A stretch of 64,000 bases of DNA. Source: Eubacteriales bacterium (GTDB lineage: Bacteria > Bacillota > Clostridia > Oscillospirales > CAG-272). The DNA is taken from contig JAZNFP010000045.1 of assembly GCA_045576095.1 (NCBI GenBank), positions 10,391 to 74,390 on the forward strand, in the 5' to 3' direction. The position numbers and the translations under genes are program-made. Position 1 is the stretch's first letter, and each line of letters starts with the position of its first letter. Below are positions 11,583 to 29,733 of the stretch, piece by piece. The notes under the pieces are model-generated. The model was not told where the DNA came from. It ran no database searches and saw only the letters and a program-made list of their open reading frames with translations.

Positions 11583-11657
11583 GCCATTGCTCCTTCTATG
11601 TGCAAAATACGTAGTCAAACCCTCAAAATGCCACAGCTTTTCATTTTATATCATATT

Positions 11658-11895: not shown

Positions 11896-12549
11896 TTATC
11901 TTACGACCGAAGAATGACTGTAAATATAGAATTCCTCCTGGCTTGGCATCCACGCCTTTTCCTTGCTTGGAAAGGTCGCGTCGAATGCCTCGACAGCGGC
12001 GGCATCCTCACAGCAATCGGCGGCGGCAGAAGGAATATACCTCCACCCTTTGCCGTCAAGCACGCGCGGCACAAGCTCGCAAACGAGAAGTGCCGATGGG
12101 AAGTTGCCGTCCGCAACGAAGCTCACATTTTTCTTTTTGCAGCTTACAAAACCACAACTGACATAGTTGCCCGGATTGCCGAAATTGATATTCACGTCGT
12201 ATCCCATCTTACGTGCAACCTCAAAGGAATGGGCGATCAGCATTTTGCCAAGCTTCTTTCTCTGATGTTTGGGAGCAATGCAAAGCGGCCCAAAGGAGAG
12301 TATCTCCTTTCGTTTCCCATTCTCGTCCTCAAGCCAAGCCTTCGTGTACATAATATTGCCGATGATCTCGCTACCCATCTCAAGCACGAATGCAAGCTCG
12401 GGGATGAAATCGGGATGTGAGCGCATCATATGAACGAAATAATGCTCGTCCGCACCGGGCTTATAGACGTTCCAAAACGCCTCTCGAGTAAGCTCTTCTA
12501 CTGCTCTGTAGTCTTTTTCTGTTTCTAAGCGCACCGTCAAATCGTTCAT
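11896..12549 (-). CDS. GNAT-family N-acetyltransferase
   Basis: YhbS-like GNAT pattern with the acetyl-CoA loop APKHQRKKLGKMLIAHSFEVARKMG. RBS AAAGGA. Confidence 0.85.
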   Translation of the reverse strand: MNDLTVRLETEKDYRAVEELTREAFWNVYKPGADEHYFVHMMRSHPDFIPELAFVLEMGSEIIGNIMYTKAWLEDENGKRKEILSFGPLCIAPKHQRKKLGKMLIAHSFEVARKMGYDVNINFGNPGNYVSCGFVSCKKKNVSFVADGNFPSALLVCELVPRVLDGKGWRYIPSAAADCCEDAAAVEAFDATFPSKEKAWMPSQEEFYIYSHSSVVR

Positions 12550-12703
12550 TTTTCGTCCTTTCGTGATTGGTTGATGCTCCGGATACGAGAAAATTACTAG
12601 AATGCATTTGCAAGCCTCTCGTTTGCAATAGGATCTCCAAGGGCTTGATGCTTTTCAGGCGGCACACTCCGATAAAAATATTCAAGCCAAGGCTTGCAGA
12701 AAT

Positions 12704-12732
12704 ATTATACCACAGAAACGCAAATAACTCAA
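12704..12732 (-). promoter_or_regulatory. Candidate promoter of the GNAT gene (extended -10)
   Basis: On the minus strand: TTGAGT (12732-12727), 17-bp spacer, TGgTATAAT (-10 at 12709-12704). This implies a ~150-nt leader. Confidence 0.5.
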
Positions 12733-12821
12733 GCATATGATTGACCAAGCGTACAACAAGCTGTCATCGGAGAAACCAATGAAAGCCCTCTTTTTGGAGA
12801 AAAAAAGTCAGCATGAAACAG

Positions 12822-13103
12822 AAAGAGCAAACACGCAAGACGAAAATCTTGAATGTCTGCTCTTTTTCGGTTTGTGCTGTTTTTGCTAACGCAAAAGTGA
12901 TGTTATGCTGCGCATCATGACATTGCTCGCTAAAGCTCGCAGTGTTATGACGTTTGCCCACCGTGCCAAAGGCACAGCATCATTCACACAGTGAACATCA
13001 CTGCCGAAGGCAACATCACTTGCCCGTAAGGGCAAGCACCGTTTCGCGTGATGCTCCGCTTGGAGCATCACGCTATGTTGCCACCTTCTTTTTGGTGCAC
13101 CAA
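12822..13103. repeat. Array of at least eight short stem-loops carrying a recurring (A/G)CATCA(C/T) / GTGATG motif
   Basis: Hairpins verified by eye: 12822-12865 (8-bp outer stem plus inner 5-bp stem), 12881-12896 (TTTTGC/TAAC/GCAAAA), 12963-12975, 12983-12995, 13002-13012, 13019-13036 (CTTGCCC/GTAA/GGGCAAG), 13046-13073 (12-bp stem) and the 13092-13103 palindrome TTGGTGCACCAA. Direct repeat ACATCACT(T)GCC at 12995 and 13013. Confidence 0.6.
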
Positions 13104-13104
13104 A

Positions 13105-14160
13105 TCAACCCGTAATACCGGAACGCTCGATACCCTCAATCAGATATCTCTGGCCGAATAGGTAAACGATAACCAGAGGCGCGATGACCATCAGACCGCC
13201 GGCGTTTGCAATTGCTACGTTGTAGAAATGCGCATACGAGGAGGACTTCTGAAGTGCATCCGGAACACCCTCAATGAGGTCCATCATCAGCGGAACGCTC
13301 GTGGTGTTGTAGAAAAGATCGGTGTAGAAGCCGTCGGTCCACTGCCAGGAGAAGGCAAAGAGGAAAATGGTAACCATCATCGGGACCGAAAGCGGCAGAA
13401 TGATACGGAAGAAGGTACGGAAGGTGCCCGAGCCGTCTACGTACGCCGACTCCTCAAGCTCATCCGGAACGCCCTGGAAGAACTGACGCATCATGAAGAT
13501 GTAAAGTCCGTTCTTAAAGGCAAGACCGGTAAAGGAGAGGATGAAGAAGGGGGTAAACGTATTGAGAAGGCTGGGTGCCTTACCCGAAACAAGCTGGATG
13601 ATGCCCTTCCAGTTCAGAGACTGGAGCGTCAGAATGTCGAAGTTCTTGAAATGCTGGAACATCGACAGCTGCAGCGTGCTGTGCGGGATTGCCATCGTGA
13701 TGATCACGAAGATGAATACAAGCTTGTTGCCCTTGAAGCGGAACTTGGCAAGTCCGTATCCAACCATGCAGCAGATAAAGGTCTGAACCAGCGCCGTACC
13801 GACCGAAAGCAAAGTCGTATTGAGAAGAATCCTCAAATAATCGTCATCGATTGCAAGCTGCTTGTAAATCTCAAACGAAAAATGCTTCGGAATCAGGTTG
13901 ACGGTCGGGTCCGCAAAATCCTGATATGCCTTCACCGAGGTAAAAATCTTGGTGAAGAAGGGATACAGGATTACAAAGCAAAGACCAATCAGAAGAATCG
14001 CGCGAAAGACGTACCAAACACGGTCAATCCAGAAATTCGAGGAGGTGAGACGCATGAGGAGTCTTTCTTTAAAGGGAATCTTCCCCTCAAACTCCATCTT
14101 AACACCGCGACGCGTGATTTTCACGTTCGAGGAGGTAGATTTCATATTCGAAGTATTCAT
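13105..14160 (-). CDS. Carbohydrate ABC transporter permease (MalG/BPD_transp_1 type), second pair
   Basis: Six-TM binding-protein-dependent permease with an EAA-type loop (ESAYVDGSGTFRTFFRIILPLSVP). Confidence 0.9.
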   Translation of the reverse strand: MNTSNMKSTSSNVKITRRGVKMEFEGKIPFKERLLMRLTSSNFWIDRVWYVFRAILLIGLCFVILYPFFTKIFTSVKAYQDFADPTVNLIPKHFSFEIYKQLAIDDDYLRILLNTTLLSVGTALVQTFICCMVGYGLAKFRFKGNKLVFIFVIITMAIPHSTLQLSMFQHFKNFDILTLQSLNWKGIIQLVSGKAPSLLNTFTPFFILSFTGLAFKNGLYIFMMRQFFQGVPDELEESAYVDGSGTFRTFFRIILPLSVPMMVTIFLFAFSWQWTDGFYTDLFYNTTSVPLMMDLIEGVPDALQKSSSYAHFYNVAIANAGGLMVIAPLVIVYLFGQRYLIEGIERSGITG

Positions 14161-14175
14161 ACTGCATTCTCCTCC

Positions 14176-15144
14176 TTACGAATCGCGTTTCTGGTAGAAG
14201 ACGAAGGCTGATGCGAAGGCTGCGAAGACTCCGACGATCAGCATGACCACAACGAAGTAGGTCCAGGACTGTGCCGTTGCGATGTTCTGGTTGGTACCGC
14301 CGCCATCGTAGATCGACTGAATCGTTAACATGACGACGTTTGTCTGTCTCGTAAAGGAGTCGATAATCGTATAAATCGCATTCACGAAGATCATCGGGCT
14401 GACCATCGGGAAGGTCACCTTCCAGAAGGTCTCCCAGGCGGAAGCACCGTCGATGCGGCTTGCCTCGTAGATGGCAGGGCTGACCGACTGAAGTCCCGCA
14501 AGGAAGATCAACATCTGAACGCCGGAGTAGTTGACGATATCGTAAATGCTGTTTACAAGATCAATGACGTAGGTGACAAGGCCGGTTCCTACCTTCATGT
14601 TCGAAAACAGCATCTGCACATCCATCATCGAGATGAAGGCATCGGCGCCGCCGGCAGGGCCGGTACCGTTATCGGTTCCGGCGGTACCCGAGAGGGTATC
14701 TGCAGCGTTGACAGCCTCCATCAGACCGGTCGAAATAATAACCGGAACGAAGAAGATTGCACGGAACGCAGCGCGGCCAAACATCTTCTGATTCAAAATG
14801 ACGGCAACGAACAATGAGAAGATAACGATTGCGGGAACCTCCCAGATCAGGTTGAGAACCCCCTCTCCGAGCGAGGTCAAAAAGGACTGGTTAAGGGCTG
14901 ACTTGAAGTGCGTGAGTCCCACGAACTTGGTCCAGTCGTAATAGGTAATACCGTCGGTCGATGCCTTACCGATCGTCGAAAAGCTGAATGCAATCGAGTC
15001 AATGACGATCGGAAGATAAAGGAGCGCCAGTCCAAGAACGAACGGAAGCACGAAAAACCAGCCTCGACGAGCCTTTCTTTCCGAAAGCGTCAGCTTACGG
15101 TTGCCCGGGAGAAACGATTTCAATTTTGAAAATTTATTTGACAT
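14176..15144 (-). CDS. Carbohydrate ABC transporter permease (MalF type), second pair
   Basis: EAA-type loop EASRIDGASAWETFWKVTFPMVSP. Has a long periplasmic-side Gly/Thr/Ala-rich loop. Confidence 0.9.
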   Translation of the reverse strand: MSNKFSKLKSFLPGNRKLTLSERKARRGWFFVLPFVLGLALLYLPIVIDSIAFSFSTIGKASTDGITYYDWTKFVGLTHFKSALNQSFLTSLGEGVLNLIWEVPAIVIFSLFVAVILNQKMFGRAAFRAIFFVPVIISTGLMEAVNAADTLSGTAGTDNGTGPAGGADAFISMMDVQMLFSNMKVGTGLVTYVIDLVNSIYDIVNYSGVQMLIFLAGLQSVSPAIYEASRIDGASAWETFWKVTFPMVSPMIFVNAIYTIIDSFTRQTNVVMLTIQSIYDGGGTNQNIATAQSWTYFVVVMLIVGVFAAFASAFVFYQKRDS

Positions 15145-15164
15145 ATTTCATCACTCTCCTTGGC

Positions 15165-18100
15165 TCATCTCGGATCAAGACGTACGAACTCGTACTTATC
15201 AAGCGTAAGCGACCGACCCTCAAGCTCAACCTTGACCTCAAAGATGCTGAAGTTCAAAATCAAGCGAACCTCGTCGCTTCCCTTCTTGTAGGTTACCATA
15301 ACAACCGATCCGTCATCAAGCGAGAAGTCGGTGTGCTTGTAGCTTGCATCGGTCGAAAGCGAGGTGGTGAAGTAGCTGAGCTTGGTCTTGTTGAGGTAAT
15401 CCTCTACCCCCGCCGTTGCAACCTCAATGTTACCCGAGGCGGTTTCGTTTGCAGCAATGAAGTCATCCAATCTACGACAGATCCTGTCGTATGCATCGGA
15501 AAGCACGGAGTCTGCTGCAAGAATGTCAGCTGCAAAGCTTACCGAGAAGCCGTTTGCAATATCCTCAAGAATAGCGGCGCGGTCAAAGGTGAGATAGAGC
15601 GCCTGCCCCTCTGTGAGAAGAACGTCGCCGTCGTCTACCAGCTTCTTGAGCGCCGTTCCGTCGGTCAGATCGGCGTCCGCAGCGCGAAGATCTGCGATCA
15701 TGCCTGCAACGTCAGCGTCAAGACCCTCGACGTAAGCGCCGTCAGCATCGGGACCACCGATGATCAGCGCGGCAAGCTCATCATAAACGAGCTGCTTTGC
15801 ATCATCGTCAGCGGCTGCGGCAATTGCCTTTCCTGCCCGAATCAGCTCACGGACGAGTGCGCCCTTCCGAACGAGAACCGCATCGTGCTGAGCGAGAAGC
15901 AGAGAGAAATACTCGTCCTCAAGCTTCTTCAGAGCTTCCTCGCGTTCGGCATCGGTAACCACGCGCTCGGCGACCAGGAACTGATGATCGTACAGCTGGT
16001 GGGTTTGCAGATCTCCGATGGCATCATCCAGAATGCCGTAGTAGCGGATGACGTCCTCTTTCCAGATGGAGTAGTTTGCGGAATAATGCTTACTGAGAAG
16101 GAAATCCTCCTTCATCAGATCAGTGTTGCGGTAGCAGAGCACGTAGTACATTGCTGAGCCGCTCTCGATTGCGCGCAGAAGCTCGTAATCGGGGTTACCG
16201 GTTTCGTTGAACGGGGCACCGGCGTACTCAACCGTACCGTGCATCACCATGCCGTAGAACGGAACGGTGCGGCTCGCACAGAAGTAGCGGCTGCTGTCAA
16301 CGGGAGCGTTCAGAAGATAATCGACGTACTTGAGTGCGTAAACGTTTCCTCCGGTGCTCAGGAGCTTCGAATACTTCGAGGAGATCGACTCAAGCGTGGA
16401 AACGAGGTAGTCCTTTGCCGTCTCGCGGTCAAAGCTGTTGTTCTCACTGAAGTTCGAGGTCAGATCCTCTGCCATGTAATCGAGCGAAAGTGCCGTAACG
16501 TTAAACTTCGAGAGCTTCTTGTTGAACTTGTTGAAGAGTCCCGTCAGCTGATCTGCCGATACGCAAAGCGAGAAGTAGGAGAAGAAGCCCTGATAGACGG
16601 TATCGTACATCTGCTTGGAAGCGTAGCGATTATCCATCGAGCGGACGGTCGTCTTCTTCTTGGAGATTCCGCCAAGTCCGCGATTCTGGTAATTGTACAT
16701 CAAGTCGACGCCGAGGATGATCTCAATACCGCTTGCGGCATTTTCCTCCGCATAGGAAAGCAGACGGTTCAGACCCTTCTTGCCGCCAACCTCCTTCATC
16801 AGCTTCAGCTTCTTCGGGTATTTTCCCTCGACGCCTCCGTTGTAGAAGCCAAGCAGACGGAACTTCACGTTGCCGATTCCCTGCTCCGCAAGCTCGGTGT
16901 GCATCGTCTCGACGTCGTCAAAGGTCGTCAGAGCAACGTCCACCTTAACCGGGAAGGTCAGAATCTTCTCCGTGGTCTTCAGCGTTCCGTAAGACTCGAT
17001 GAAGAGCGGGATGCGCGACTTCACGTCGGTATCCGTAAGCTCACTGAGCGTCTCGGTCACGTTGATCAAATAGTTCCTGTAGTAACGTGCCATCTCAACG
17101 TAGGACGCCGTATAGGTTGCAGGCGCACCCGAGGGAACCAGCGTCTGCAGCGTGGGATCGAGAAGCATCACGATCTTCGTGGTATAGTTGCCTACGTACT
17201 TGGTATCCGAGAAGATCGGAATGTTCGCCGCACCGGAAATCGAATAGGAGTCGGTGGGACGGGGCGTATAGGACTGATAGATCGTCAGATGTCTCGAAGA
17301 CTTACGAACACCCGCGGAAAGCGTTACGAGAGAATCGCCCTCGGTGATGATCGCAAAAAATCCGGTGGTGATGCCGGTATCGGCATCGGTATTGACTGCG
17401 CCGTACACGGGGAGACGAACCGTCTGCGTTTTCTTGCCCTCAATGGTGCTGTACGCATAATCGTAGCCGTAAACAGGCTGCTTGATAACGGTCGTGGTAA
17501 CGTCCTCGTTGTTGATCAGAGCACCGCTTCCGTCGGGGAAGAACAGATAGCCCTCTTCGTTTTTGTCGTTTGCGGCAAAGTAGCGCAGGATCGAGAGCCC
17601 GTCAAGACGGTACTTCGACTCGTCAAAGGAAATGCTGCTTGCGGGAAGCGAGTAGGTCATTCCCTCATCGTCGAGCAGGTACTCAATCGCGCAACGGAAG
17701 ACGGGACGCGGCTTCTCGGCGTACTTAAAGCCAACTTTTGCCTCCTGCTTGAGCATATCATCGACGGTATAGCCGGTGTTGACCGAGGTCAGAATGTTCT
17801 GAAGCTCGATCTTCTTGTTGGTTGGGATTCCGGACTCCAGCGTCCAGATGACGGGCTTCAGTCCGGTTACGGGATCCACGTCGTCAAGAACGGGATAAAG
17901 CTTGAGAAGGTCCTCCGTCACCTCGGTCTTGTTCGGATCAAACTGCTTGTAACGTCCGGTCAGCGTCTCGTAATCGGTCAGAATCCCTACGATCCACTTA
18001 CGGAAAACGATATCCGACGGAAGCTCAAGCGCATGCTCGTCGATCACGCCGGCCTGCTTGAGGTCAAGCAGCATCTCATCATAAAGCTCCCGGTCGCCTG

Positions 18101-18914
18101 CGATTGCCTTTTTGTAGGCGTTTTTGTATGCAGTGGAGAAGGTACTCGACGCAATCGAGAACACCCCTGTCCAGTATTTTCCAAAGGCGGTTACATCACC
18201 GATCTCGCCATCGTACTGGCATTTTCTGTATGCGCCGGTGCTGCTTCCGATAATCGAGTCGAAATCGGTCGTCAGATTCTCGAACACGTCAAGGATCGAC
18301 TGCTGCATCGGGATGACGATGGTTTCAAGATAATCCTCATGCAGAATCGCCTCGGGAAGTGCGTAACGCGATACGGTATCACCGAGAACGTACTCAACGC
18401 GGATACCGGTTCTGCGGACACCGCTATCATCGAGCTTGGATATCTTGGAAATCAAGATCTGTCCCTTCTGTGCCGCCAGCTTAAAGCTGTTCTCATCAAC
18501 GTACGAGGTACCCGAGAGAATGTCGGTATAGCTGATCCAGACCTGCGAGAGCATATCGCTCATCCAATCTTCGGAGGGCTTGCCGTTGGCGCTCGGCTTT
18601 GCGACATCAACGGGATTGGTGGTCAGATACTGCCCTGTATAAAGGTTCTTAAGATAAACCTCGCCGGTATACTTGTTTGCGTACAGAGCGAACTGATCGT
18701 TCTGCGCGTAGAGGTAGGTATACCCGAGAGCAATCTCATCCTGCACCTTTTCCTCCGCGGTCAGGAAGGTTGCTTCAAAGGCGTGCTTGGTAGCCGCCTC
18801 GTAAATCAGCTGATCGCCGTCGCCTGAGGACGATGCACCCGCGGGGATCGCAACGATGCAGGAGGTCAGTACCGTCAGCACCGCAAGCATAAAAGCAATG
18901 ATTTTGTTTTTCAT
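15165..18914 (-). CDS. 1249-aa secreted or lipid-anchored protein of unknown function (possibly DUF5696-like; sandwich plus barrel-like pattern)
   Basis: N-terminal signal peptide with a possible lipobox LTSC. Segments such as YLFFPDGSGALI, KFRLLGFYNGGVEGKYP, IEIILGVDLMYNY, LSLDYMAEDL and VPFYGMVMHGTVEY suggest alternating beta/alpha units. Ala/Asp-rich helical C-terminal region. Confidence 0.85.
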   Translation of the reverse strand: MKNKIIAFMLAVLTVLTSCIVAIPAGASSSGDGDQLIYEAATKHAFEATFLTAEEKVQDEIALGYTYLYAQNDQFALYANKYTGEVYLKNLYTGQYLTTNPVDVAKPSANGKPSEDWMSDMLSQVWISYTDILSGTSYVDENSFKLAAQKGQILISKISKLDDSGVRRTGIRVEYVLGDTVSRYALPEAILHEDYLETIVIPMQQSILDVFENLTTDFDSIIGSSTGAYRKCQYDGEIGDVTAFGKYWTGVFSIASSTFSTAYKNAYKKAIAGDRELYDEMLLDLKQAGVIDEHALELPSDIVFRKWIVGILTDYETLTGRYKQFDPNKTEVTEDLLKLYPVLDDVDPVTGLKPVIWTLESGIPTNKKIELQNILTSVNTGYTVDDMLKQEAKVGFKYAEKPRPVFRCAIEYLLDDEGMTYSLPASSISFDESKYRLDGLSILRYFAANDKNEEGYLFFPDGSGALINNEDVTTTVIKQPVYGYDYAYSTIEGKKTQTVRLPVYGAVNTDADTGITTGFFAIITEGDSLVTLSAGVRKSSRHLTIYQSYTPRPTDSYSISGAANIPIFSDTKYVGNYTTKIVMLLDPTLQTLVPSGAPATYTASYVEMARYYRNYLINVTETLSELTDTDVKSRIPLFIESYGTLKTTEKILTFPVKVDVALTTFDDVETMHTELAEQGIGNVKFRLLGFYNGGVEGKYPKKLKLMKEVGGKKGLNRLLSYAEENAASGIEIILGVDLMYNYQNRGLGGISKKKTTVRSMDNRYASKQMYDTVYQGFFSYFSLCVSADQLTGLFNKFNKKLSKFNVTALSLDYMAEDLTSNFSENNSFDRETAKDYLVSTLESISSKYSKLLSTGGNVYALKYVDYLLNAPVDSSRYFCASRTVPFYGMVMHGTVEYAGAPFNETGNPDYELLRAIESGSAMYYVLCYRNTDLMKEDFLLSKHYSANYSIWKEDVIRYYGILDDAIGDLQTHQLYDHQFLVAERVVTDAEREEALKKLEDEYFSLLLAQHDAVLVRKGALVRELIRAGKAIAAAADDDAKQLVYDELAALIIGGPDADGAYVEGLDADVAGMIADLRAADADLTDGTALKKLVDDGDVLLTEGQALYLTFDRAAILEDIANGFSVSFAADILAADSVLSDAYDRICRRLDDFIAANETASGNIEVATAGVEDYLNKTKLSYFTTSLSTDASYKHTDFSLDDGSVVMVTYKKGSDEVRLILNFSIFEVKVELEGRSLTLDKYEFVRLDPR

Positions 18915-18930
18915 TTGTTCACCCCGTTCG

Positions 18931-21201
18931 TTATGTCCGATAACTGATTTCCGTCACAATCGACGAAATAAACTGTACCATCTTAGCAATCAGGCTGGAG
19001 AAGAGGATCGTCACGAACATGATTACGCAGATACAAATGATCGTTCCTAAGGTTGTGATGACGTTTTTGTTGAGCGAATAGTCGTGGGTAACGAGCATGC
19101 CGAAGAATACGAGGAATGCGACCCAGATCCATCCGAAAACGACGATCATCGTTGCGATCGAGCCCTCATCCTTGGTCATGAAGTTCTGCATGAGCGTCGA
19201 AACGACAAGCAGCGCCGGCATGGGAGCCAAGGAATAGCCAACGGCAATGAAGACATCCTTGAAGGAGCCCTCGCCGTCAAACAGCGTCGTCAAGCACCAG
19301 TTCGCGGTCGTCCAAAGAATGACGGGAACGAGAATCGAAACGATCTGAATCAGAATGCTCGAGCCGTCCTCATACGGATCGAAGATATATCCGCGACCGA
19401 CCGACTGGTAGTAGAAGGCCAGAATCGTAAGCGCAACGTAGGTCATCGCCGCACGAACCGATCCTCTGTGCTCATGCTTGATATCCCAGAAGCCGTCGAA
19501 GGGATGGAAGATCAGATGGAAGGCATATACGAGCTCCTCCCAATAGGTCTTTTTACCGACCTTGAGCGCCACGCGCGTGTTAAACTTCTTTGCCTTGCCC
19601 AAAATTTTAATGACCGCAACCAAAACGGCGATTACACCGAGGACAAGAAAAACAAAGTACTTCGAGATCCATTTGGTACGAAGCTGTGCGTAGGCATCCG
19701 AGTAGTAGGTCGTCTCGTGCGCTGCCTTGAAGTACTCCATCGCACGCTCGTAATCCTCTTCGGTCTTTGCGTTTCGATAAATCGCTTTACCGATACCGAT
19801 ATAAGCAGAGTCGAAGTTGTTATTGCGCTGCAGGATCTCGGTCCAGATGAGCTCTGCCTGATCGTAGAGGTTTCTGTTTTCCTGTGCAAGCGCCTCAATG
19901 AGAAGATCTCCGTAGCTCGTGCGCTCAAAGACCGTAAAGGAGTTGGCGTTGTAATCAAGGAGCAGAAGTCTGCTTCCCTGATAGGTAACGGCACGGACGG
20001 TCTTCAGGGTTCCGAGCGTGGTTCCTCCGTCGCCGAAGGCATGCAGCAGAACGCCGTCGGAGTTGTAGGTGTAAACGCGGCTTCTCTTCGAGTCGATGAT
20101 CGACCAAGAGCCCTCGGGACCGACGGCAATATCGGCAATCGAGGAAACTCCGCCGACCGTCGCTCCGGTCGTGGCGTCTACGGTCAAGCTGCCGAGCGTC
20201 ACCGCAACCTCGCCGCCGCAATCGAAGAAGCCGTTGCGGTTCATGATCTCCTTACCGCCGGAGTTGAGCTTCTTCACGGGAGAGTACGAGGAGCTCTTGG
20301 AGGTAATCGACTTTCTCTGGTTCTCAAGGTCGGCAGCATCGGTAAAGATGATCGTACCGTAAATGAAGCCTTTGTCGTCAACCGTAATGTTGTTGTAGGT
20401 CGTAGGGACGAACTGCTTGGAGCTGGCTCTGTCCTCTGCCGACTTAAAGCGACGCCAGAAAATCTCAAACACGCTTGCCGAAACCTTCTGAGCACCGATA
20501 AATCCGGTGAACTCACCGTTATCGCTTGCGAGAACGATAATACCCTCGTTACAGGTCGATGCAACGATATACACACGGCCGTACTTATCAACAGCGCAGG
20601 CCTTCGGGGTATACGCACCCTCGGCAAGAAGCGCCGTCTCGGGTCTCTCGATGATCTTGTGGAAGGAGCAATCGGAGCGGTTGAAGATCACGATACGGCT
20701 GTTTCCCGAGTCACATACGTAGATATAATCCTTGTAGATGAACAAGCCCTGGGGAGTCTTCAGTCTATCGTAATCGGCGGTCGTGCTCGGGAAGAAATCA
20801 ATTGCATTCTTGAACTTATACGCATAGTCAAGAACGATAACGCGGTTGTTGTCGGTATCGGAGATGTATACGTTGCCGTCCGAATCGGTGGCAATGTCAC
20901 CGGGATGCAGAAGCGTGGCGGAAAACGCCTTCTCCGCCTCTGCAGCCGGATTGGCAAAACCGGTTCCTTCAAAATAGCGGGTTGCACGCTCGATATACGC
21001 ATCCTTATACCGGTCAAGCTTCATGTAGCTTCCGTCAACGACGGGAGAAATCGGCGAATATGCCGCAGGGGAAAACAAGATGTCGCCCTGGCTCGAATAG
21101 ATGTAGGTGTCGTAGGATTCGCTTGCACTGACCGGAACCGTTCCGAAAAGGAGAATGGCAAGGCACGCGAATGCCAGAATACTGAGTAGCTTTTTATTCA
21201 T
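18931..21201 (-). CDS. NHL-repeat beta-propeller / TPR-like / Yip1-domain fusion membrane protein
   Basis: Signal peptide. About six NHL-like blades (GNVYISDTDNNRVIVLD, YIYVCDSGNSRIVIFN, GRVYIVAST, SRVYTYNSDG, ...). A helical TPR-like segment, one TM helix, then HPFDGFWDIKHEHRGS plus five TM helices typical of bacterial Yip1 family proteins. ATG 21201 has better RBS spacing than 21207. Confidence 0.85.
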   Translation of the reverse strand: MNKKLLSILAFACLAILLFGTVPVSASESYDTYIYSSQGDILFSPAAYSPISPVVDGSYMKLDRYKDAYIERATRYFEGTGFANPAAEAEKAFSATLLHPGDIATDSDGNVYISDTDNNRVIVLDYAYKFKNAIDFFPSTTADYDRLKTPQGLFIYKDYIYVCDSGNSRIVIFNRSDCSFHKIIERPETALLAEGAYTPKACAVDKYGRVYIVASTCNEGIIVLASDNGEFTGFIGAQKVSASVFEIFWRRFKSAEDRASSKQFVPTTYNNITVDDKGFIYGTIIFTDAADLENQRKSITSKSSSYSPVKKLNSGGKEIMNRNGFFDCGGEVAVTLGSLTVDATTGATVGGVSSIADIAVGPEGSWSIIDSKRSRVYTYNSDGVLLHAFGDGGTTLGTLKTVRAVTYQGSRLLLLDYNANSFTVFERTSYGDLLIEALAQENRNLYDQAELIWTEILQRNNNFDSAYIGIGKAIYRNAKTEEDYERAMEYFKAAHETTYYSDAYAQLRTKWISKYFVFLVLGVIAVLVAVIKILGKAKKFNTRVALKVGKKTYWEELVYAFHLIFHPFDGFWDIKHEHRGSVRAAMTYVALTILAFYYQSVGRGYIFDPYEDGSSILIQIVSILVPVILWTTANWCLTTLFDGEGSFKDVFIAVGYSLAPMPALLVVSTLMQNFMTKDEGSIATMIVVFGWIWVAFLVFFGMLVTHDYSLNKNVITTLGTIICICVIMFVTILFSSLIAKMVQFISSIVTEISYRT

Positions 21202-21219
21202 CTTCATTCTCTCCTTTCG

Positions 21220-22092
21220 TTAATCCTTCATTCCGCTTGCGCCCATCGTCTCAATAATCTTACTCTGGCTGATGACAAAGACGATGATCGGAACCGCCAT
21301 CATAACGACGACCGCTGCAGCACCTGCACCCGAACGGGCGATACCGCCGGCGACGATCTGCTGGATCGCGTAGTTAAATGTCTTGAGCTGCTCGGAATGA
21401 ATGTAAATTGAGGCACCCATGTTCCACAGGTTCTTAAAGCTCTCGATGATCAGCGTCAGCCACGCGGGCTTAACCATCGGCATGGCGATTACCCAGAAGG
21501 TTCGAAGCTCGCTGGCGCCGTCAAGACGCGCGCTCTCCAGAACCGTATCGGGAACCGAGGACTCCATAAACTGCTTCATCAGGTAAAGACCGAGAGTTGA
21601 CGCCATCGCGGGAACGATGACCGAAAGATAGGTATCAACCCAGTGGAAGGCACTGAGCAGGATGAAGTGCGTCACCTGGTTAACCGTCGAATGGAACATC
21701 AGGGACATGACGATGACCTGGAACATCCAGTTACGGCCCGGGAACTTCAGCTTGGCAAGCGCATAGGCTGCCATTGAGCCGAGGAACAGGTTTCCTGCGG
21801 TACCCGATGCGGTGATAAACACCGTATTGAAGATGTAACGCGAGAACGGAACCCAGGAGTCGGTCATCAGCGTAAAGAGATCGGAGTAGTTGGCAAGCGT
21901 GGGTCTGCGAGGAAGGAAGCGAGGCGGGAACATGAACAGCTCGTCAAGAGGCTTGAGCGACTGACCGATCGCATAAAGCATCGGCAGGAACATGAACGCA
22001 CCCATCAGCGTCAAAACGAGGGTAATACCGGCGTCTCCTCCGGCAGAACGGTTCAGGACAACTTTATGACCACGTGTTCTAAGTTTTTTCAT
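21220..22092 (-). CDS. Carbohydrate ABC transporter permease (MalG type), first pair
   Basis: EAA-type loop ESARLDGASELRTFWVIAMPMVKP. Six TM helices. Confidence 0.9.
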   Translation of the reverse strand: MKKLRTRGHKVVLNRSAGGDAGITLVLTLMGAFMFLPMLYAIGQSLKPLDELFMFPPRFLPRRPTLANYSDLFTLMTDSWVPFSRYIFNTVFITASGTAGNLFLGSMAAYALAKLKFPGRNWMFQVIVMSLMFHSTVNQVTHFILLSAFHWVDTYLSVIVPAMASTLGLYLMKQFMESSVPDTVLESARLDGASELRTFWVIAMPMVKPAWLTLIIESFKNLWNMGASIYIHSEQLKTFNYAIQQIVAGGIARSGAGAAAVVVMMAVPIIVFVISQSKIIETMGASGMKD

Positions 22093-22093
22093 A

Positions 22094-23176
22094 TCACTGT
22101 CCCACCTTCGAAAGAGCTTTCTTGATAACCATATTACAAGTAATCATGATAACGAAGAGAATGACGGCGATCGCCGAAGCGTAACCGACCTCATATCTCT
22201 GTCCGCCGTAGTCATCCAGGTGATGCATGATCGTATGTGCCGCGTAGTTGACCGAGGGCATTCCGCAAAGCGCGGTAACGATTGCACCGAAGCCGAAGGA
22301 CTGCGTGATCGAAAGAACGGCACCGAACATCAGCTGAGGACGCATGGTCGGGAGCGTGATGAACCACAGCTCCTGCCAACGGTTCTTGATTCCGTCAACG
22401 GCTGCTGCCTCGTAAAGGCTGCGGTCAACCGTCTGAAGTCCTGCGATAAAGGACAGGAACGCGGTACCGAGCGAGGTCCAAAGAGCGACGACGATACAAA
22501 GGGGCATAACCCAGTCGGCATCCTTGAAGAACAGAATCGGCTCGCTGATGAAATCAAATTCGATCAAAAATGCGTTTGCCCAGCCATAGTAGTCGGACGA
22601 GAAGAAGGTCTGCCATACCATGTAGACCGAGCCCGAAATCGAGGGGGCATAGAAGATCAGCGTTACGAGAGCACGAAGCTTCGGGGGCAGCTCATTGATG
22701 AACCATGCAATGAGCAACGCCATGATGTAGGAAACGGGGCCTGTGATCGAGGCAAAGATCAGGGTATTCTTCGCGGCGATCAGGAAAATCTCGTCGTTAA
22801 GCAGCAAACGAGAGAAGTTGTCAAATCCAACGAGGTGCGGGAACTGAAGCATGTTGAAGTCGGTCAAGCTCAGAACCATCGACAGGATAACGGGAAGCAC
22901 GGTGAAGATGAAGAACAGAATCATAAAGGGGGCGACCATGAAATACGCAACCTTATTCTTCTTCATCTCGTTCCAGATCCACTGCCGACGCGTCATTTCC
23001 GCGCGGGATACCGGACTCGATGCATTGTTTCCGTTTTGTGAACCGCTCGTCTTTTTCCGAGTCACGAGCGACTTGGTCTTCCCGGCCACGGAAAGGGCAC
23101 CGGATTTGCATTTGGTGCCGATTCCCTTAAGCCCGGACACAAGACGCGCGCCAAAGGATTCATTGCCTTGTGACAT
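22094..23176 (-). CDS. Carbohydrate ABC transporter permease (MalF type) with an N-terminal cytoplasmic extension, first pair
   Basis: EAA-type loop EAAAVDGIKNRWQELWFITLPTMRP. ATG 23176 lies 10 nt after GGAGA. The ORF-track start at 23200 is TTG. Confidence 0.9.
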   Translation of the reverse strand: MSQGNESFGARLVSGLKGIGTKCKSGALSVAGKTKSLVTRKKTSGSQNGNNASSPVSRAEMTRRQWIWNEMKKNKVAYFMVAPFMILFFIFTVLPVILSMVLSLTDFNMLQFPHLVGFDNFSRLLLNDEIFLIAAKNTLIFASITGPVSYIMALLIAWFINELPPKLRALVTLIFYAPSISGSVYMVWQTFFSSDYYGWANAFLIEFDFISEPILFFKDADWVMPLCIVVALWTSLGTAFLSFIAGLQTVDRSLYEAAAVDGIKNRWQELWFITLPTMRPQLMFGAVLSITQSFGFGAIVTALCGMPSVNYAAHTIMHHLDDYGGQRYEVGYASAIAVILFVIMITCNMVIKKALSKVGQ

Positions 23177-23218
23177 TGTGCATATTCTCCTTTTTCTCAA
23201 AATGTATTCCGGTATCTC

Positions 23219-26200
23219 TTAGTTGCTCGCTTCGGGAGAGGTCGTCGTCTCGGGGGCGCCGGTCGACATGCCGAACTCCTTACGCTTTCTCGTAATCTCA
23301 TCGTTGATTGCGTTGAGATAACCGGTCAAGGCGTCAACCGGATTCGCACCCTCGTTCTTCACGTCAAGGAATGCAAAGTCGGTGTAGCGGGCAATGATAT
23401 AGCTTCCGGGGTAGTTCACAATTGCGGAAAGGTGGTTGAGCTGATCCTGGATCGCAGCGTTCTCCTTGGTGGTCCAGGAAAGCTTCTCGATTGCACCGAG
23501 GTTTGCCGCCGCATACTTTGCGGAGGGACCGATCAGGGCAACCATGCGGTTACCGTACTCAGCCTCGACGTCTGCGCTCGTCTGCCACTTCATGAAGTTC
23601 CAGGCTGCGTCGGGATCCTTACAGCCGTGGAGCATAACGGTTGCGGTGATGGTTGCGATCGAGTTGTAATTCTTGACTCTGCCGTCGTCTCCCGCAACGC
23701 CGGGGATCGAGGAGAAGCTCCACAGACCCTTGATTTCGGTTGCAAAGACGGTCAGCGTATTATAAACGGTAATGTAATCGGAGATAACGAGAGGCATCTC
23801 ACCGGTACGGAAGCGGTTTGCGGGATCAAAGCTGACCGGGAAGCCGTAATCGGTGTAAAGGCTCGTGCAGAAGCGGAATGCCTCGAGAGCCTCGTTGGTT
23901 CCGAGACCGATCTGCGAGCCTGCGTACTCGGGATTATCCTCGTACAGCCACATGCTACCGCCATTTTGATAAAGGAAGAAATCGAGTGCGAGTGTGTAGT
24001 TAACACCGATCTCAAGGTAGTTGCTCTGGAAGATCGGGAGCAACGCAAGCACCTCGTCCCATGTGGTCGGGACGGCAACACCGAGCTCTGCGAGGACGTC
24101 GAGACGGTAGAACATCATCGGGAAGTTCATCGTCAGGGGAAGTCCGTAGGTCTTATTCTGAAGCGTCAGGGTGTTCATCGCGGCCTTGTGATAGATATCG
24201 TCCTCGGTTCCCGAGACGCCGTCGGCGCCGTATGCCGCTACGGCAAAGTCGTCAAAGTAGGAGATATCGTTGATTGCGCCGCGGATTGCATAGTTGATGA
24301 CCGAGGCACTGTCAAGTCCGAGATAAACGTCGGGGCCCTTCCCTGCCAGAACCGAAGGAAGCAAGGTCGATGCAACGACGAGCTTCAGCGAAACAGGTCC
24401 GGAGTTGTCGAGCTTGGAATAATCGCCGTCGATCAGCGAGCGCCAGATCTTCGACTGGTCACGGCCCAGAGCGAGCCAAACGTTCAGGGCAGAATCACCG
24501 AGCGACTCCTTGTCGGTCACGCCCATGTTGTCGTAATCGGTGACAAAGCTCATGAAGAACGCCTTGATCTGATAGCCGAGCGTCTGGAAGAAGTTTGCGT
24601 TTGCCTTCGGCGCCTTTGCCTCGGGAGACTGGATCGAGAGGAAGTCGATGGTCATGATCGAGGCCTTAGAGTTGTTGACCCAGGTACCGAGCGTACCGAG
24701 GTAGGACTTGAGGGTTGCGAGATTCTTTGCGATCTCGGATTCGCTGCCGCCCATCTTGGTCAGAAGATCGGAAACCGTCTTGAGCGTTGCGATATGCGAG
24801 CCGGTCGTTCCGCAGAGCTCCTCGAATCTTGCGGCAACCTCGGCAAGAGCAATCGCTTCATTATTAAAATGCCAGATTACGTTCGGCATATTGGTGGAGA
24901 AATGATAGTCGCGGTACTCGTCGGGATCTGCGCCCGTCAGCTTGATGATATCAAGATAGGCGTCGTTGATGGTCTTGAGCGAATCCTCCACGCGCTTGAT
25001 CAGATCGCCAAGCGAGCCGAGGCCAACCTCAATGTAAATGCGGTACTCAACGTCTTTATCAAAATAGAAGAGGAACTTGTCTTCGCCATCACCGAGGGGC
25101 TTGCTCTGCCAGTCCTTGTGATAATCGAAGCGAGCATTATAGGCAGCCTCGAAGGGAACGAGCGGCGTTCCGTCGTCAAGACCGTAAACGACACCGGCAT
25201 CCGCATCGCGGTTAGAGGACCACAGGCGAACGGTGCGACAGACATACATTCCCTGCAGCGAGGTCTGATGATACCGGAGATCAATATTGTAGAAGCCCGA
25301 CTTCTCAACCTTGAAGCTGTAAGCCGCCCACTGTCCGACCGTATCGAAGCTGGTTGCACCGATGACGTTGAAAAGCTGTGCAGCCGCCGACGTCGGAGAG
25401 GTGATTGCCGAGGTCGAATCGTTGCCCATGTAAACCGAGGTGTCGGAGACGAGAATCGGCTTCTCTGCCTGCACCTTGATTTTGGGTGTATCCTTCTTCG
25501 GAACCGCAGCAGCACCGTAATCTCTTACCATGTTAGCGATATACTCTGCGTAAGAAGGAGCGGTATAGGTGCCGTCGTTCGAGGGAAGAAGCGTAATCGA
25601 GCCGACAATGCAAGCCTCGCGGGATGCCTCGAGGGTAATCGTATGCTCACCCTCGGTCAGGAAGAATTTGAAATACCCCTCGGTATATCCGGTAGAATCG
25701 TTGCAAACGTAGGTTCTCCAATCCTGAACTGCTACGATCTCGGGCTGAAGGTCGTTGCCGTTGAGATCCTTTTCAAAGATGGGATTGCCCTCGTCGTCCA
25801 GCGGATAATCGTACTTCCACAGCTTCGAAAGACGGATATAGCTCGCCTCAGAGAAGGGAATGGCATCGTCAATGTAAAGCTTGCGCTCGATACCGTTAAC
25901 GGTTCCCTTAAGCGTGTAATACTCGATCGCGATGTAATAGAGGCCGTCGGACGGCGCCTCCACCTTAAAGGTTACCGATCCGGAGTTCGGAAGATATACC
26001 GAGCTTTCCGCACGGTCACCCATATTCGGCCAAGACCGGTAATCCTGGCAGAAGGCGCTGTTGATGACGAGCGCCGTATCCTCCGGATTGGTCGAGGTAA
26101 AATCGGTAAGATCAACCTCGAAAGAACCGGTGCCGTGAGGCTTGCTCTCCCAGCGCTTTTCATAAACCGAATACGAGGAGGCGTCCAAATAGGACTTCAT

Positions 26201-26365
26201 CTCATTCGGATCCTCAAAAAACTTGTTGTCAGCTACGGAATTGCCGCTTCCAGAGCTGCCGGCACCGGATGACGCGTCTGCCGACACGGTCATACCTCCG
26301 ACGCCAAAGCAGACAACGAGGGCAAGAATCAAAGCAACAAGCCGTGTGAATTTGCTCTTTTTCAT
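23219..26365 (-). CDS. Giant (~1048 aa) extracellular solute-binding protein: ~600-aa N-terminal extension plus a C-terminal family-1 SBP domain
   Basis: Signal/anchor peptide MKKSKFTRLVALILALVVCFGVGG followed by a Ser/Gly linker. The C-terminal half has SBP_bac_1-like landmarks (GKGPDVYLG, TYGLPLTMNFPMMFYR, VPTTWDEVLALL, RFRTGEMPL). The N-terminal half holds two similar beta-sandwich-like segments (FKVEAPSDGLYYIAIEYY and FKVEKSGFYNIDLRYH). Confidence 0.9.
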   Translation of the reverse strand: MKKSKFTRLVALILALVVCFGVGGMTVSADASSGAGSSGSGNSVADNKFFEDPNEMKSYLDASSYSVYEKRWESKPHGTGSFEVDLTDFTSTNPEDTALVINSAFCQDYRSWPNMGDRAESSVYLPNSGSVTFKVEAPSDGLYYIAIEYYTLKGTVNGIERKLYIDDAIPFSEASYIRLSKLWKYDYPLDDEGNPIFEKDLNGNDLQPEIVAVQDWRTYVCNDSTGYTEGYFKFFLTEGEHTITLEASREACIVGSITLLPSNDGTYTAPSYAEYIANMVRDYGAAAVPKKDTPKIKVQAEKPILVSDTSVYMGNDSTSAITSPTSAAAQLFNVIGATSFDTVGQWAAYSFKVEKSGFYNIDLRYHQTSLQGMYVCRTVRLWSSNRDADAGVVYGLDDGTPLVPFEAAYNARFDYHKDWQSKPLGDGEDKFLFYFDKDVEYRIYIEVGLGSLGDLIKRVEDSLKTINDAYLDIIKLTGADPDEYRDYHFSTNMPNVIWHFNNEAIALAEVAARFEELCGTTGSHIATLKTVSDLLTKMGGSESEIAKNLATLKSYLGTLGTWVNNSKASIMTIDFLSIQSPEAKAPKANANFFQTLGYQIKAFFMSFVTDYDNMGVTDKESLGDSALNVWLALGRDQSKIWRSLIDGDYSKLDNSGPVSLKLVVASTLLPSVLAGKGPDVYLGLDSASVINYAIRGAINDISYFDDFAVAAYGADGVSGTEDDIYHKAAMNTLTLQNKTYGLPLTMNFPMMFYRLDVLAELGVAVPTTWDEVLALLPIFQSNYLEIGVNYTLALDFFLYQNGGSMWLYEDNPEYAGSQIGLGTNEALEAFRFCTSLYTDYGFPVSFDPANRFRTGEMPLVISDYITVYNTLTVFATEIKGLWSFSSIPGVAGDDGRVKNYNSIATITATVMLHGCKDPDAAWNFMKWQTSADVEAEYGNRMVALIGPSAKYAAANLGAIEKLSWTTKENAAIQDQLNHLSAIVNYPGSYIIARYTDFAFLDVKNEGANPVDALTGYLNAINDEITRKRKEFGMSTGAPETTTSPEASN

Positions 26366-26434
26366 ACCTATACGTTCCTCCATTGGTATCTCAAAATCCA
26401 GAACAGGGCATCATGCACAGCTATGGATATTAAA

Positions 26435-26463
26435 ATCATACCACATTGCTCCCTGATTGTCAA
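26435..26463 (-). promoter_or_regulatory. Near-consensus SigA promoter of the seven-gene operon
   Basis: On the minus strand: TTGACA (26463-26458), 17-bp spacer, TGgTATGAT (-10 at 26440-26435). AT-rich A-tract region upstream (26470-26760). Confidence 0.6.
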
Positions 26464-26777
26464 GTCCTACACTATTATATATCGCGTGCCAAAACGGGAA
26501 AATCGGGTGATTTTTACCAATTATCTCCATGCCTCGCACCGACCGCTTTTTTCGGAAGATAAACGTAAATATTTGTTTACACAGCGGTATTCACAATATG
26601 TTACTACAAATTACTTTTATTTTTGGTAAAACGCCAAAATAAAAGTCTATTTTTTATCGTAAGTAATTTTATATTACCCACCGGAGGGAGGTGCGAGCCT
26701 GAAAATTCCTTGTTTTTCCAAAAAAAGAAGGCGAAAAATTACCAAAAAAATTTTTTATCGATTTTTTTCAGTCGTAG

Positions 26778-26814
26778 AAAAGGGAGCTGCCCGACCGTGC
26801 AAGCAGCTCCCTTT
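26778..26814 (-). terminator. Terminator downstream of mnmA
   Basis: GGGAGCTGC (26782-26790) pairs with GCAGCTCCC (26803-26811). On the minus strand it is followed by TTTTCT. Confidence 0.7.
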
Positions 26815-26830
26815 ATATAGATGAAACGTT

Positions 26831-27859
26831 TCAAGGATTTTCACAAATGACCCCCCCAAAAAGCAGGAGGTCCCCTCGGTAAAAGACCGCAGACTGCCCC
26901 GCCGTAACGTAATGGCGCGGCTCGGCAAGCGAGACACAGAGCCGATCGCCCGTGCAACGGACCTCGGCATCCACGGGTTTTGCCTGATAGCGAAGCACCG
27001 CCTCACAGCGAAGCGTCTCGCCGGGAAGGAGTGGAGCGATCCCCGAAAACACCGGGGATTGCAGATACAGCTCGGACACGCGTGCCTCCCCTGCGGGGGC
27101 AAGCACGATGCGCGCCGTACCGGGATCGATCGCCTTGACGTACATCCGCTCTCCGAGCGCGACACCCAGCCCTCGCCTCTGACCGACCGTATACCGATGA
27201 ATTCCTCGGTGTCTGCCAAGGACTCTCCCCGACTCATCGACGAACTCCCCCTCCGGGAAGGCACCGAACGACGATTCGAGAAATGCGGCGTAATTGCCGT
27301 CCGGGATAAAGCAAATATCTCGGCTCTCCGCCTTTTCTGCGGTGGAAAGCGATGCGCTGCGTGCGGAGCCGCGAACCTCCTCCTTCGTCATTCCACCGAG
27401 TGGAAGCAGAAGATGCGACAAAACCCCCTCGTCAAGGCGCCATAAAACGTAACTCTGGTCCTTCTTCGAATCAACACCGCGTAATATTGCGTGCCTGCCG
27501 CCGTTTTCCGTGATTCTCGCGTAGTGCCCCGTTGCAATCCGTTCAAAGCCGTTTTCCAGCGCATACTTCAGCAGCGCTCGGAACTTCACTCGCTCGTTGC
27601 AAAGGATGCAGGGGTTCGGAGTTCTGCCGCATCGGTATTCCTCGGCAAAATTTTTGATGACGGTATTCCTAAAGAGCTCGGTCACGTCAAGCTCGTGCAA
27701 AGCGATTCCGAGCTCTCTTGCCGAGGCACGTGCCGAGTCAAGCTCGGTATATTCATGCATCCGAAGAATCGCTCCCTCAACGCGATGCCCTGCGTCGAGC
27801 AAGCACCGCGCGCTGTAGGCACTGTCGAGCCCCCCGCTCATACCAAGCAAAACACGCAT
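26831..27859 (-). CDS. mnmA: tRNA 2-thiouridine(34) synthase MnmA
   Basis: PP-loop LGMSGGLDSAY, GRTPNPCILCNERVKF, ATGHYARI. Confidence 0.95.
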   Translation of the reverse strand: MRVLLGMSGGLDSAYSARCLLDAGHRVEGAILRMHEYTELDSARASARELGIALHELDVTELFRNTVIKNFAEEYRCGRTPNPCILCNERVKFRALLKYALENGFERIATGHYARITENGGRHAILRGVDSKKDQSYVLWRLDEGVLSHLLLPLGGMTKEEVRGSARSASLSTAEKAESRDICFIPDGNYAAFLESSFGAFPEGEFVDESGRVLGRHRGIHRYTVGQRRGLGVALGERMYVKAIDPGTARIVLAPAGEARVSELYLQSPVFSGIAPLLPGETLRCEAVLRYQAKPVDAEVRCTGDRLCVSLAEPRHYVTAGQSAVFYRGDLLLFGGVICENP

Positions 27860-27873
27860 AGACGCTCCTTTCT

Positions 27874-27908
27874 AAAAAGAGAACGGACGGGACACCCGTC
27901 CGTTCTTC
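27874..27908 (-). terminator. Hairpin plus T-run between nifU and mnmA (internal terminator or attenuator)
   Basis: On the minus strand: GAACGGACGGG, loop TGT, CCCGTCCGTTC, then TCTTTTT, directly before the mnmA RBS AAAGGAG. Confidence 0.6.
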
Positions 27909-27934
27909 CCTCTTTCGTTTTCCTGCCGAGGCGT

Positions 27935-28360
27935 TCAGTTGTGCGCCTCGCACTCCTTGCAATCGCTCTCAAGCTCAAAATCAATCGGTCTGCCGATCTT
28001 CGTGTAATAATCGGCAAGGGCGGCTTTGATTGCCTCCTCGGCGAGCACCGAGCAGTGAATCTTCACGGGAGGAAGCCCCTCAAGCGCCTCAACGACGGCG
28101 CTATTGGTCAGCTGAAGTGCCTCTGCGACGGTTTTTCCCTTGATCAGCTCGGTTGCCATCGACGAGGTTGCAATAGCGGCACCGCAGCCGAAGGTCTTGA
28201 ACTTCACGTCAACGATGACGTCGTCCTCAATCTTCAGATACATTTTCATAATATCTCCGCACTTGGCGTTTCCAACCTGACCGACGCCACTCGGAGCCTC
28301 GATCTCGCCAACGTTGCGCGGATGCGTGAAATGGTCCATTACCTTATCGCTGTACTGCAT
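27935..28360 (-). CDS. nifU: Fe-S cluster assembly scaffold NifU/IscU
   Basis: GNAKCGDIMKMYL, FKTFGCGAAIATSS, IHCSVLAEEA (the three conserved Cys). Confidence 0.93.
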   Translation of the reverse strand: MQYSDKVMDHFTHPRNVGEIEAPSGVGQVGNAKCGDIMKMYLKIEDDVIVDVKFKTFGCGAAIATSSMATELIKGKTVAEALQLTNSAVVEALEGLPPVKIHCSVLAEEAIKAALADYYTKIGRPIDFELESDCKECEAHN

Positions 28361-29704: not shown

Positions 29705-29733
29705 TTGACTTTCGCGGTCGATTCTATTATAAT
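29705..29733 (+). promoter_or_regulatory. SigA-type promoter of the glucokinase gene
   Basis: TTGACT (29705-29710), 17-bp spacer, TATAAT (29728-29733). Confidence 0.55.

Follow-up and report, generated by a model that had tools for sequence, protein, structure and literature searches.

Carbohydrate ATP-binding cassette (ABC) importers of the CUT1 type, such as MalEFGK2 and MsmEFGK with its shared MsmX/MsmK, are recognised by a MalE-like solute-binding protein (SBP), two permeases and an ATPase. Here we describe a seven-gene cassette at positions 13105-26383 on the minus strand of a 64-kb stretch of contig JAZNFP010000045.1 from a Eubacteriales bacterium; this whole stretch is called the window below. 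Similarly to the CUT1 importers, the cassette encodes a MalE-like SBP domain and MalF/UgpA- and MalG/UgpE-type permeases with EAA loops. Unlike them, it holds two divergent permease pairs in one fixed operon, its SBP is 1054 amino acids (aa) long with about 570 extra N-terminal residues and no lipid anchor, and an NHL/Yip1 protein and a DUF5696 protein are obligatorily encoded between the permease pairs. The components come from known superfamilies, and it is the fixed architecture of large uncharacterised proteins together with two translocons that is the new element. At a rough probability of 0.55, we read the operon as a two-module CUT1-type carbohydrate ABC importer relying on an ATPase encoded elsewhere, a reading that builds on gene content, folds, secretion signals, conservation and modularity.

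The polysaccharide utilisation loci of Gram-positive bacteria and the Sus-type utilisomes of Bacteroidetes combine genes for glycan binding at the surface, for a protein of glycosidase fold and for a transporter. The present cassette likewise encodes putative surface glycan-binding modules, a predicted glycosidase-fold protein and transporter permeases, and variants of it lie among glycoside hydrolase (GH) genes and regulators. Unlike the Sus utilisomes, it has no TonB-dependent transporter or SusD, and unlike both kinds of system it keeps the NHL/Yip1 and DUF5696 set fixed while the carbohydrate-active enzymes (CAZymes) change; in the clade of the window there is neither a regulator nor another CAZyme. 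The predicted fold of DUF5696 residues 387-982 is that of GH129 (NagBb, ZgGH129) and GH101 (EngBF, SpGH101) enzymes, from which the protein differs by having no significant sequence similarity to them, no conserved nucleophile carboxylate, and extra N-terminal (30-380) and C-terminal helical (985-1249) regions. A precedent for a Yip1 accessory is YknW, the Yip1-family protein which accompanies the ABC transporter in the Bacillus YknWXYZ system (PMC4887032). In both cases a bacterial Yip1 membrane protein is encoded, and presumably works, with an ABC transporter. YknYZ, however, is an exporter of the MacB type and has a membrane-fusion protein, whereas the cassette has type I importer permeases and no gene for a membrane-fusion protein or MacB, and here an NHL propeller is either fused to the Yip1 domain or encoded next to it. 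Full-text literature searches gave nothing on DUF5696, PF18952 or a Yip1/NHL/SBP system, and no functional study of the cassette came to light.

Gene content, conservation and modularity of the cassette

Seven closely packed minus-strand open reading frames (ORFs) make up the cassette: the giant SBP (23219-26383), the permeases P1F (22094-23200) and P1G (21220-22092), the NHL/Yip1 protein (18931-21207), the DUF5696 protein (15165-18914) and the permeases P2F (14176-15144) and P2G (13105-14160). The gaps between them are, in operon order, 18, 1, 12, 16, 20 and 15 nt, and every gene is preceded by its own Shine-Dalgarno sequence. The positions of these sequences put the likely true starts of the SBP and P1F at 26365 (M7 of the SBP) and 23176, respectively, and the first gap then becomes 42 nt. 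Pfam and NCBIfam give the gene order as giant SBP, UgpA-like, UgpE-like, NHL/Yip1, DUF5696 and two more permeases. An earlier reading made from the letters of the DNA alone (the original prediction) had placed the seven ORFs and their small gaps exactly where they were found, and Pfam agrees with its domain order of an SBP, a permease pair, an NHL/Yip1 protein, an exoprotein and a second permease pair.

All four permeases carry EAA coupling loops and BPD_transp_1 domains, so that the permease pair of a CUT1 importer is present twice. P1F is of the MalF/UgpA type (UgpA at 1e-15; EAA loop YEAAAVDG...LP) and P1G of the MalG/UgpE type (UgpE at 4e-24). In the second pair P2F matches BPD_transp_1 at 1e-12 and has the EAA loop YEASRIDG...FP, and P2G matches GlcU, UgpE and MalG at 1e-15 to 3e-19. 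Pairs 1 and 2 are only approximately 25% identical (P2G and P1G, 25%), and each permease finds its best match in its positional counterpart in relatives, which points to positional orthology. The LSGGQ signature is absent from every reading frame of the 64-kb window, and the ABC ATPase of a CUT1 importer is thus missing from it; no regulator was found in or beside the operon. For the operon itself both absences had been reported in the original prediction, and its judgement that an unlinked ATPase is plausible finds support in Paenibacillus cellulosilyticus, in which a ugpC/MsmX-type gene immediately precedes the seven-gene cassette. The ATPase would be encoded elsewhere and act in trans.

The cassette is found in many gut and digester Firmicutes with a fixed architecture. 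Scanning species-representative genomes, one for each species, gave at least 577 loci, and the best 80 of these, from which gene order was counted, are all from metagenome-assembled genomes of gut and rumen Clostridia. The order SBP-P1F-P1G-YIP-DUF-P2F-P2G was seen in 70/70 loci with enough flanking sequence among these best 80, and one further locus has the same order with NHL and Yip1 as separate genes. Median identity to the orthologues is 72% for P1F/P1G, 53% for P2F/P2G, 46% for the NHL/Yip1 protein, 41% for the SBP and 34% for DUF5696, and the seven-gene order is retained even where DUF5696 identity is 22-29%. Plasmid pNP243 of Butyrivibrio fibrisolvens D1 carries the genes in the same order; upstream of them it encodes a histidine kinase, a response regulator and a GH43 protein, and downstream two SBPs. 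The same seven genes are present on a 508-kb plasmid of P. cellulosilyticus KACC 14175, directly preceded by the ugpC ATPase gene. Directly downstream of them on this plasmid (locus L172, 15949-25172) four LLM-class flavin-dependent oxidoreductases, an NADPH-dependent oxidoreductase and two lipoprotein SBPs are encoded, a gene set unusual beside a sugar importer. The expectation of a conserved yet uncharacterised system is thereby upheld, the gene-neighbourhood check once proposed for it having been run with the order kept in relatives, B. fibrisolvens and P. cellulosilyticus. PGAP gene names likewise confirm the original statement that YIP1 and DUF5696 genes occur with sugar ABC genes in Clostridia and Paenibacillus.

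A scan of metagenomes seeded with a short, distant DUF5696 subfamily returned 80 loci, and their classification by hidden Markov models (HMMs) revealed three architectures: the full seven genes, YIP-DUF-P2F-P2G alone, and the permuted order YIP-DUF-P2F-P2G-SBP-P1F-P1G. Since core-only and permuted loci exist, the invariant core is Yip1/NHL-DUF5696-pair 2. The giant SBP and pair 1 are a separable module, which can be absent or downstream, and the original notion of one indivisible machine has to be given up. An ordinary SBP of approximately 435 aa adjoins the core in 28/31 evaluable sister-lineage loci vs 1/56 in the clade of the window; its family matches the arabino-oligosaccharide-binding protein 6rjy in a profile search (E = 1e-21). 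No further SBP was found elsewhere in the 64-kb window. The presence of the small SBP beside the core in sister lineages implies that pair 2 was ancestrally SBP-dependent and that the window, with its single SBP, shows a derived condition. The puzzling ratio of one SBP to two translocons, to which the original prediction had drawn attention, is therefore correct for the window but clade-specific.

Arrays of the small SBP were also seen. Four copies (435 aa) follow P2G directly in tandem in locus L140 (14707-20510), and in locus L126 (12723-17006) two small SBPs with an unclassified 432-aa ORF between them come directly after P2G. These arrays suggest that several binding proteins feed a single core translocon.

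The giant SBP, the NHL/Yip1 protein and the DUF5696 protein

Translation of the giant SBP probably starts at M7, which is invariant in orthologues and has the ribosome-binding site GGAGGA 10 nt ahead of it. SBP_bac_8 and SBP_bac_1 match above the Pfam cut-off in residues 672-951 only, and the MalE-like SBP of a CUT1 importer is thus present. Among the matches listed there are 120 homologues of 1004-1234 aa, 110/120 of which cover at least 97% of the query. The structure model, with a predicted local distance difference test score (pLDDT) of 85, comprises a signal peptide, two beta-sandwiches, a four-helix bundle and a MalE-like domain. The first beta-sandwich (residues approximately 95-267; 25583-26101) and the second (approximately 302-454; 25022-25480) are all-beta in the model and may resemble carbohydrate-binding modules (CBMs). 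Weak matches to CBM_35, Golvesin_C and GH115_C recur in orthologues of module 1. For module 2, CBM_35 is matched at E = 0.016 in the window, which is below the cut-off, and at 1.4e-5 in the orthologue from locus L006. In total, CBM_35 or Golvesin_C gave sub-threshold matches in 6/8 SBP orthologues, and GH115_C exceeded its cut-off in L006. No similarity between the two modules was detectable. The bundle of four long helices (residues approximately 456-574; 24662-25018) may be a spacer or docking element.

The MalE-like domain (residues approximately 578-1040; 23264-24652) was compared with known structures using Foldseek. The matches, with E down to 6e-17 and target template modelling (TM) scores of 0.73-0.81, are oligosaccharide binders, namely sophoro-oligosaccharide, cycloalternan, cycloisomalto-oligosaccharide and maltodextrin binding proteins; the closest by sequence is the sophoro-oligosaccharide binder Lin1841 (E = 5e-7). 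Signal peptides were detected in approximately 97-99% of the homologues of the SBP, NHL/Yip1 and DUF5696 proteins, and a lipobox in 0/120 giant SBPs. An SBP without a lipid anchor is unusual in monoderms. The signal peptides of the three large proteins and the CBM-like modules ahead of the oligosaccharide-binding domain are in line with the surface capture that had been foreseen. In one permuted locus (L092, 14581-19209) the giant-SBP ORF was called, from a crude start, at 1543 aa, which is approximately 500 aa above the usual length.

The NHL/Yip1 protein has 758 aa (Yip1 at 1e-16, NHL at 5e-10). It belongs to the Yip1 family, PF04893 being matched at 61.7 bits vs a cut-off of 28.6 in residues 564-732, and it has a propeller, for which NHL scores 39.3 bits vs a cut-off of 20. 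The NHL beta-propeller region (residues approximately 35-440; 19888-21105) matches the PknD-derived Pizza propellers (3e-25) in as many as five stretches. According to hydropathy, the protein consists of a signal peptide and 5-6 C-terminal transmembrane segments, the latter in the Yip1 domain (residues approximately 511-758; 18931-19677), and the N-terminal signal peptide suggests that the propeller is located outside the cell. The tetratricopeptide-like repeat which the original prediction included was found by Pfam in orthologues and not in the protein of the window. At least 2488 homologue clusters are known for this protein. In loci L005 and L171 and in many of L129-L170, the NHL propeller and Yip1 are two neighbouring genes and not fused, implying that both parts cooperate yet are separable.

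The DUF5696 protein has a signal peptide and 1249 aa. Its membership of PF18952 is clear (E = 9.5e-127; 424.5 bits vs a cut-off of 25.6, residues 387-982). The AlphaFold model of residues 30-1229 (pLDDT 93.1, predicted TM score 0.82) shows the GH129/GH101 architecture of an N-terminal beta-sandwich followed by a (beta/alpha)8 barrel, and this core spans residues 387-982 (15969-17756). The top Foldseek match is GH129 NagBb (5wzp; E = 4e-19, target TM 0.63, 624 columns), and GH129 ZgGH129, GH101 EngBF and SpGH101, GH36 and GH31 follow (5opq, 2zxq, 5a55). Entries 5A58 and 5A59 of SpGH101 carry mutations of D764 and E796. The protein is thus predicted to have a glycosidase fold. At the sequence level, single-sequence phmmer and profile searches against the PDB gave a best E of 0.25-0.6 and only a faint GH129 lead, a Pfam scan of 21 DUF5696 homologues at E <= 1 gave no GH family, and NCBIfam had no match for the protein. 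The original statement that the operon has no recognisable CAZyme accordingly stands for sequences only, and the protein can no longer be placed outside all known kinds of protein, its model having the GH129/GH101/GH36/GH31 fold.

Nor is the protein an orphan, as had been supposed. A word-indexed search gave 103 homologue clusters, and a full HMM scan 6833 clusters at 50% identity, 4044 of them with E <= 1e-30; the exact sequence of the window protein is not on record. Conserved residues are D461 (in a PDGSGA motif), D485 and D555 in the beta-sandwich, and E640, N692, D737, N857, Y859, S875, H892, N903 and E917 in the barrel region. With the exception of E917, the latter are invariant and polar, and in the model they lie on the strands of the barrel or immediately follow them. 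The barrel therefore seems to have a function, though not that of a canonical GH129/GH101 enzyme.

Transcription signals and genomic surroundings

A promoter-like site, TTGACA-17-TATGAT with an upstream TG, was predicted by pattern at 26435-26463 (minus strand). With 11/12 matches it is the sole site of this quality in the 16 kb scanned (12000-28000). The total number of promoter-like sites is close to that expected by chance (11 observed vs 10.1 expected), and inside the cassette neither they nor terminator-like sites are more frequent than chance. At the 3' end lies a hairpin array (12810-13104, minus strand; -129 kcal/mol), the last stem-loop of which is terminator-like; for the region 12810-13110, 0/100 shuffles folded equally stably (z = -7.0). 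The near-consensus promoter sequence and the terminal hairpin array of the original prediction were thus both recovered. Judging from spacing and pattern scans, the seven genes are a real operon. No Rfam family was matched in 12000-28000.

Further elements were noticed around the operon. An imperfect palindrome, GTAAA-N6-TTTAC, lies in an A+T-rich stretch at 26565-26580, approximately 100 nt upstream of the -35 element, and could be an operator. Just past the hairpin array, a second promoter-like site (TTGAGT-17-TATAAT with TG, 10/12; 12704-12732, minus strand) precedes a GNAT acetyltransferase gene (11896-12549, minus strand), with which a separate unit starts. Long plus-strand ORFs of 862 aa (16239-18827), 701 aa (19084-21189) and 946 aa (23432-26272) lie opposite the DUF5696, Yip1 and SBP genes, respectively, and are most likely non-coding shadows of these real genes. 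That the seven ORFs themselves are due to chance is ruled out by strong HMM matches and conserved synteny.

The rest of the window is occupied by housekeeping genes, including those for GroEL, a sigma factor, AddB, PriA, RsmB, a class II aminoacyl-tRNA synthetase, IscS and MnmA. In the window, as in about 15 related loci, the mnmA gene of an iscS-nifU-mnmA run immediately precedes the cassette. Downstream of the cassette, a gene combining BcrAD_BadFG and DUF2229 (CoA-enzyme activase-like, 1008 aa; 8592-11618, minus strand) is present; the same two-domain gene (996 aa) follows the cassette in locus L001, and an unannotated ORF of approximately 997 aa from the same ORF cluster occupies this position in L007. 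This shared neighbour indicates that the whole region is vertically inherited. Among the housekeeping genes there are also ORFs of approximately 195-415 aa without a Pfam match (29727-30974, 33323-34138 and 7213-8464, all minus strand). PADLOC returned no defence-system match for the three large proteins; this and the housekeeping synteny rule out a defence system or mobile element.

The surroundings of other loci are more varied. A divergent ROK gene, called at 319 aa in L002 and probably encoding a sugar kinase, lies upstream in 17 loci. One distant variant locus holds GH144-like, GH35/42, GH3 and GH94 (SOGP-type) genes and a LacI regulator. In other variant loci there are an AraC regulator, an FAD oxidoreductase with an F5/8-type C domain and a GH16-like protein; two GH16 genes; GH3, CBM96, GDSL esterase and GH43 genes; or a two-component system and GH43. 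The accessory pair stays the same amid changing CAZymes, which points to a generic part in handling or transporting glycans rather than to the activity of a single substrate-specific glycosidase.

Proposed mechanism, alternatives and biological meaning

Concerning the substrate class, tethering, catalysis and SBP sharing of the two-module importer, we infer the following. Module A, the non-lipidated giant SBP with P1F/P1G, would be a complete binding-protein-dependent importer. Module B, the invariant unit, consists of NHL/Yip1, the secreted GH129/GH101-like DUF5696 protein and P2F/P2G. At the cell surface, the CBM-like modules may capture a glycan that is long or polymeric. The Yip1 protein may then hold the anchorless DUF5696 protein, and perhaps the SBP, beside the translocons; it is proposed as the tether because no other component combines a large ectodomain with membrane helices. 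DUF5696 would bind and possibly cleave the glycan, and oligosaccharides would enter via both translocons, with a shared MsmX/UgpC-type ATPase powering uptake. Where the small SBP is absent, as in the clade of the window, the giant SBP or an unlinked SBP would feed the second translocon.

Several observations weigh against this reading. The evidence for a single transcript consists of spacing and pattern scans only, and the flanks in the clade of the window are housekeeping genes with no other CAZyme. The same DUF5696 residues are conserved beside very different CAZyme sets, which argues against one specific glycosidase activity. Furthermore, the loop after beta4, where GH129, GH101, GH31 and GH36 enzymes have their nucleophile, is without a conserved carboxylate. 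Among 53 close homologues, position 812 is S in 15, A in 13, D in 10 and G in 10, and no other position of the loop 812-830 has an invariant carboxylate; the register of beta4 was taken from the secondary structure of the model and from an HMM alignment, itself weak, of query 661-724 with NagBb 295-358, and the catalytic residues were mapped by secondary structure and conservation. On this model, hydrolysis by the canonical mechanism is unlikely, and the processing role assumed in the original prediction is left unproven for the same reason.

The missing carboxylate also favours the view that DUF5696 is a pseudo-glycosidase, of GH129-like fold but acting as a glycan-binding receptor or gate, which with NHL/Yip1 delivers the substrate to pair 2 and replaces the small SBP in the clade of the window. 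DUF5696 is always encoded immediately upstream of P2F/P2G, the small SBP is missing in 55/56 clade loci with P2F/P2G intact (median 53% identity), and the conserved residues do not vary with the CAZyme partners. We nevertheless regard this view as rather unlikely: the ordinary SBP beside the core in 28/31 sister-lineage loci speaks for an ancestral SBP dependence of pair 2, the invariant acids E640 and D737 and the polar strand residues fit a non-canonical active site as well, and a receptor other than an SBP is not known to us for any type I importer.

Still less probable, in our opinion, is that two independent importers share one operon, pair 2 using an unlinked ordinary SBP and the Yip1/NHL and DUF5696 proteins serving pair 2 only, with no supercomplex. 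The separability of module A, which is absent or downstream of module B in some loci, and the mere 25% or so of identity between the two permease pairs would suit such an arrangement, and orphan SBPs are common in Firmicutes. It is difficult to reconcile with the order fixed in every clade locus with enough flank, with the 12-nt gap from P1G to the Yip1 gene, with the lack of any other SBP in the 64-kb window and with the small SBP being beside the cassette in only 1/56 clade loci. That the cassette is a housekeeping system recycling or sensing the cell's own envelope or exopolysaccharide glycans, and not dietary ones, is highly improbable: its place after mnmA in the window and about 15 loci, the strong promoter-like site, the lack of a regulator and the housekeeping remainder of the window fit this idea, whereas the variants within polysaccharide-utilisation clusters (GH43, GH16, GH3, CBM96 and GH94; LacI, AraC and two-component regulators) and the divergent ROK gene (approximately 320 aa) upstream in 17 loci, with its presumed kinase role, speak against it.

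The reading as a two-module importer can be extended, tentatively and with considerable doubt, to the proposal that NHL/Yip1 and DUF5696 define an unrecognised class of Firmicutes ABC importers, a "monoderm utilisome", in which Yip1 would be a membrane scaffold keeping anchorless binding proteins and a receptor or enzyme of glycosidase fold directly above one or two translocons and, in the clade of the window, one CBM-bearing SBP would serve two different translocons.

Among the major degraders of fibre in guts, rumens and digesters are Oscillospirales, Lachnospiraceae and related Clostridia, and much less is known of how these bacteria take up glycans than of the Sus systems in Bacteroidetes. 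The cassette raises the questions of whether two translocons can belong to one importer system and be served by one binding protein, whether DUF5696 is a new glycoside hydrolase family or a pseudo-enzyme, and what Yip1 does beside an importer. The cultured carriers B. fibrisolvens D1 and P. cellulosilyticus KACC 14175 make experiments feasible. If the monoderm utilisome is real, long glycans would be captured, handled and imported within one complex.

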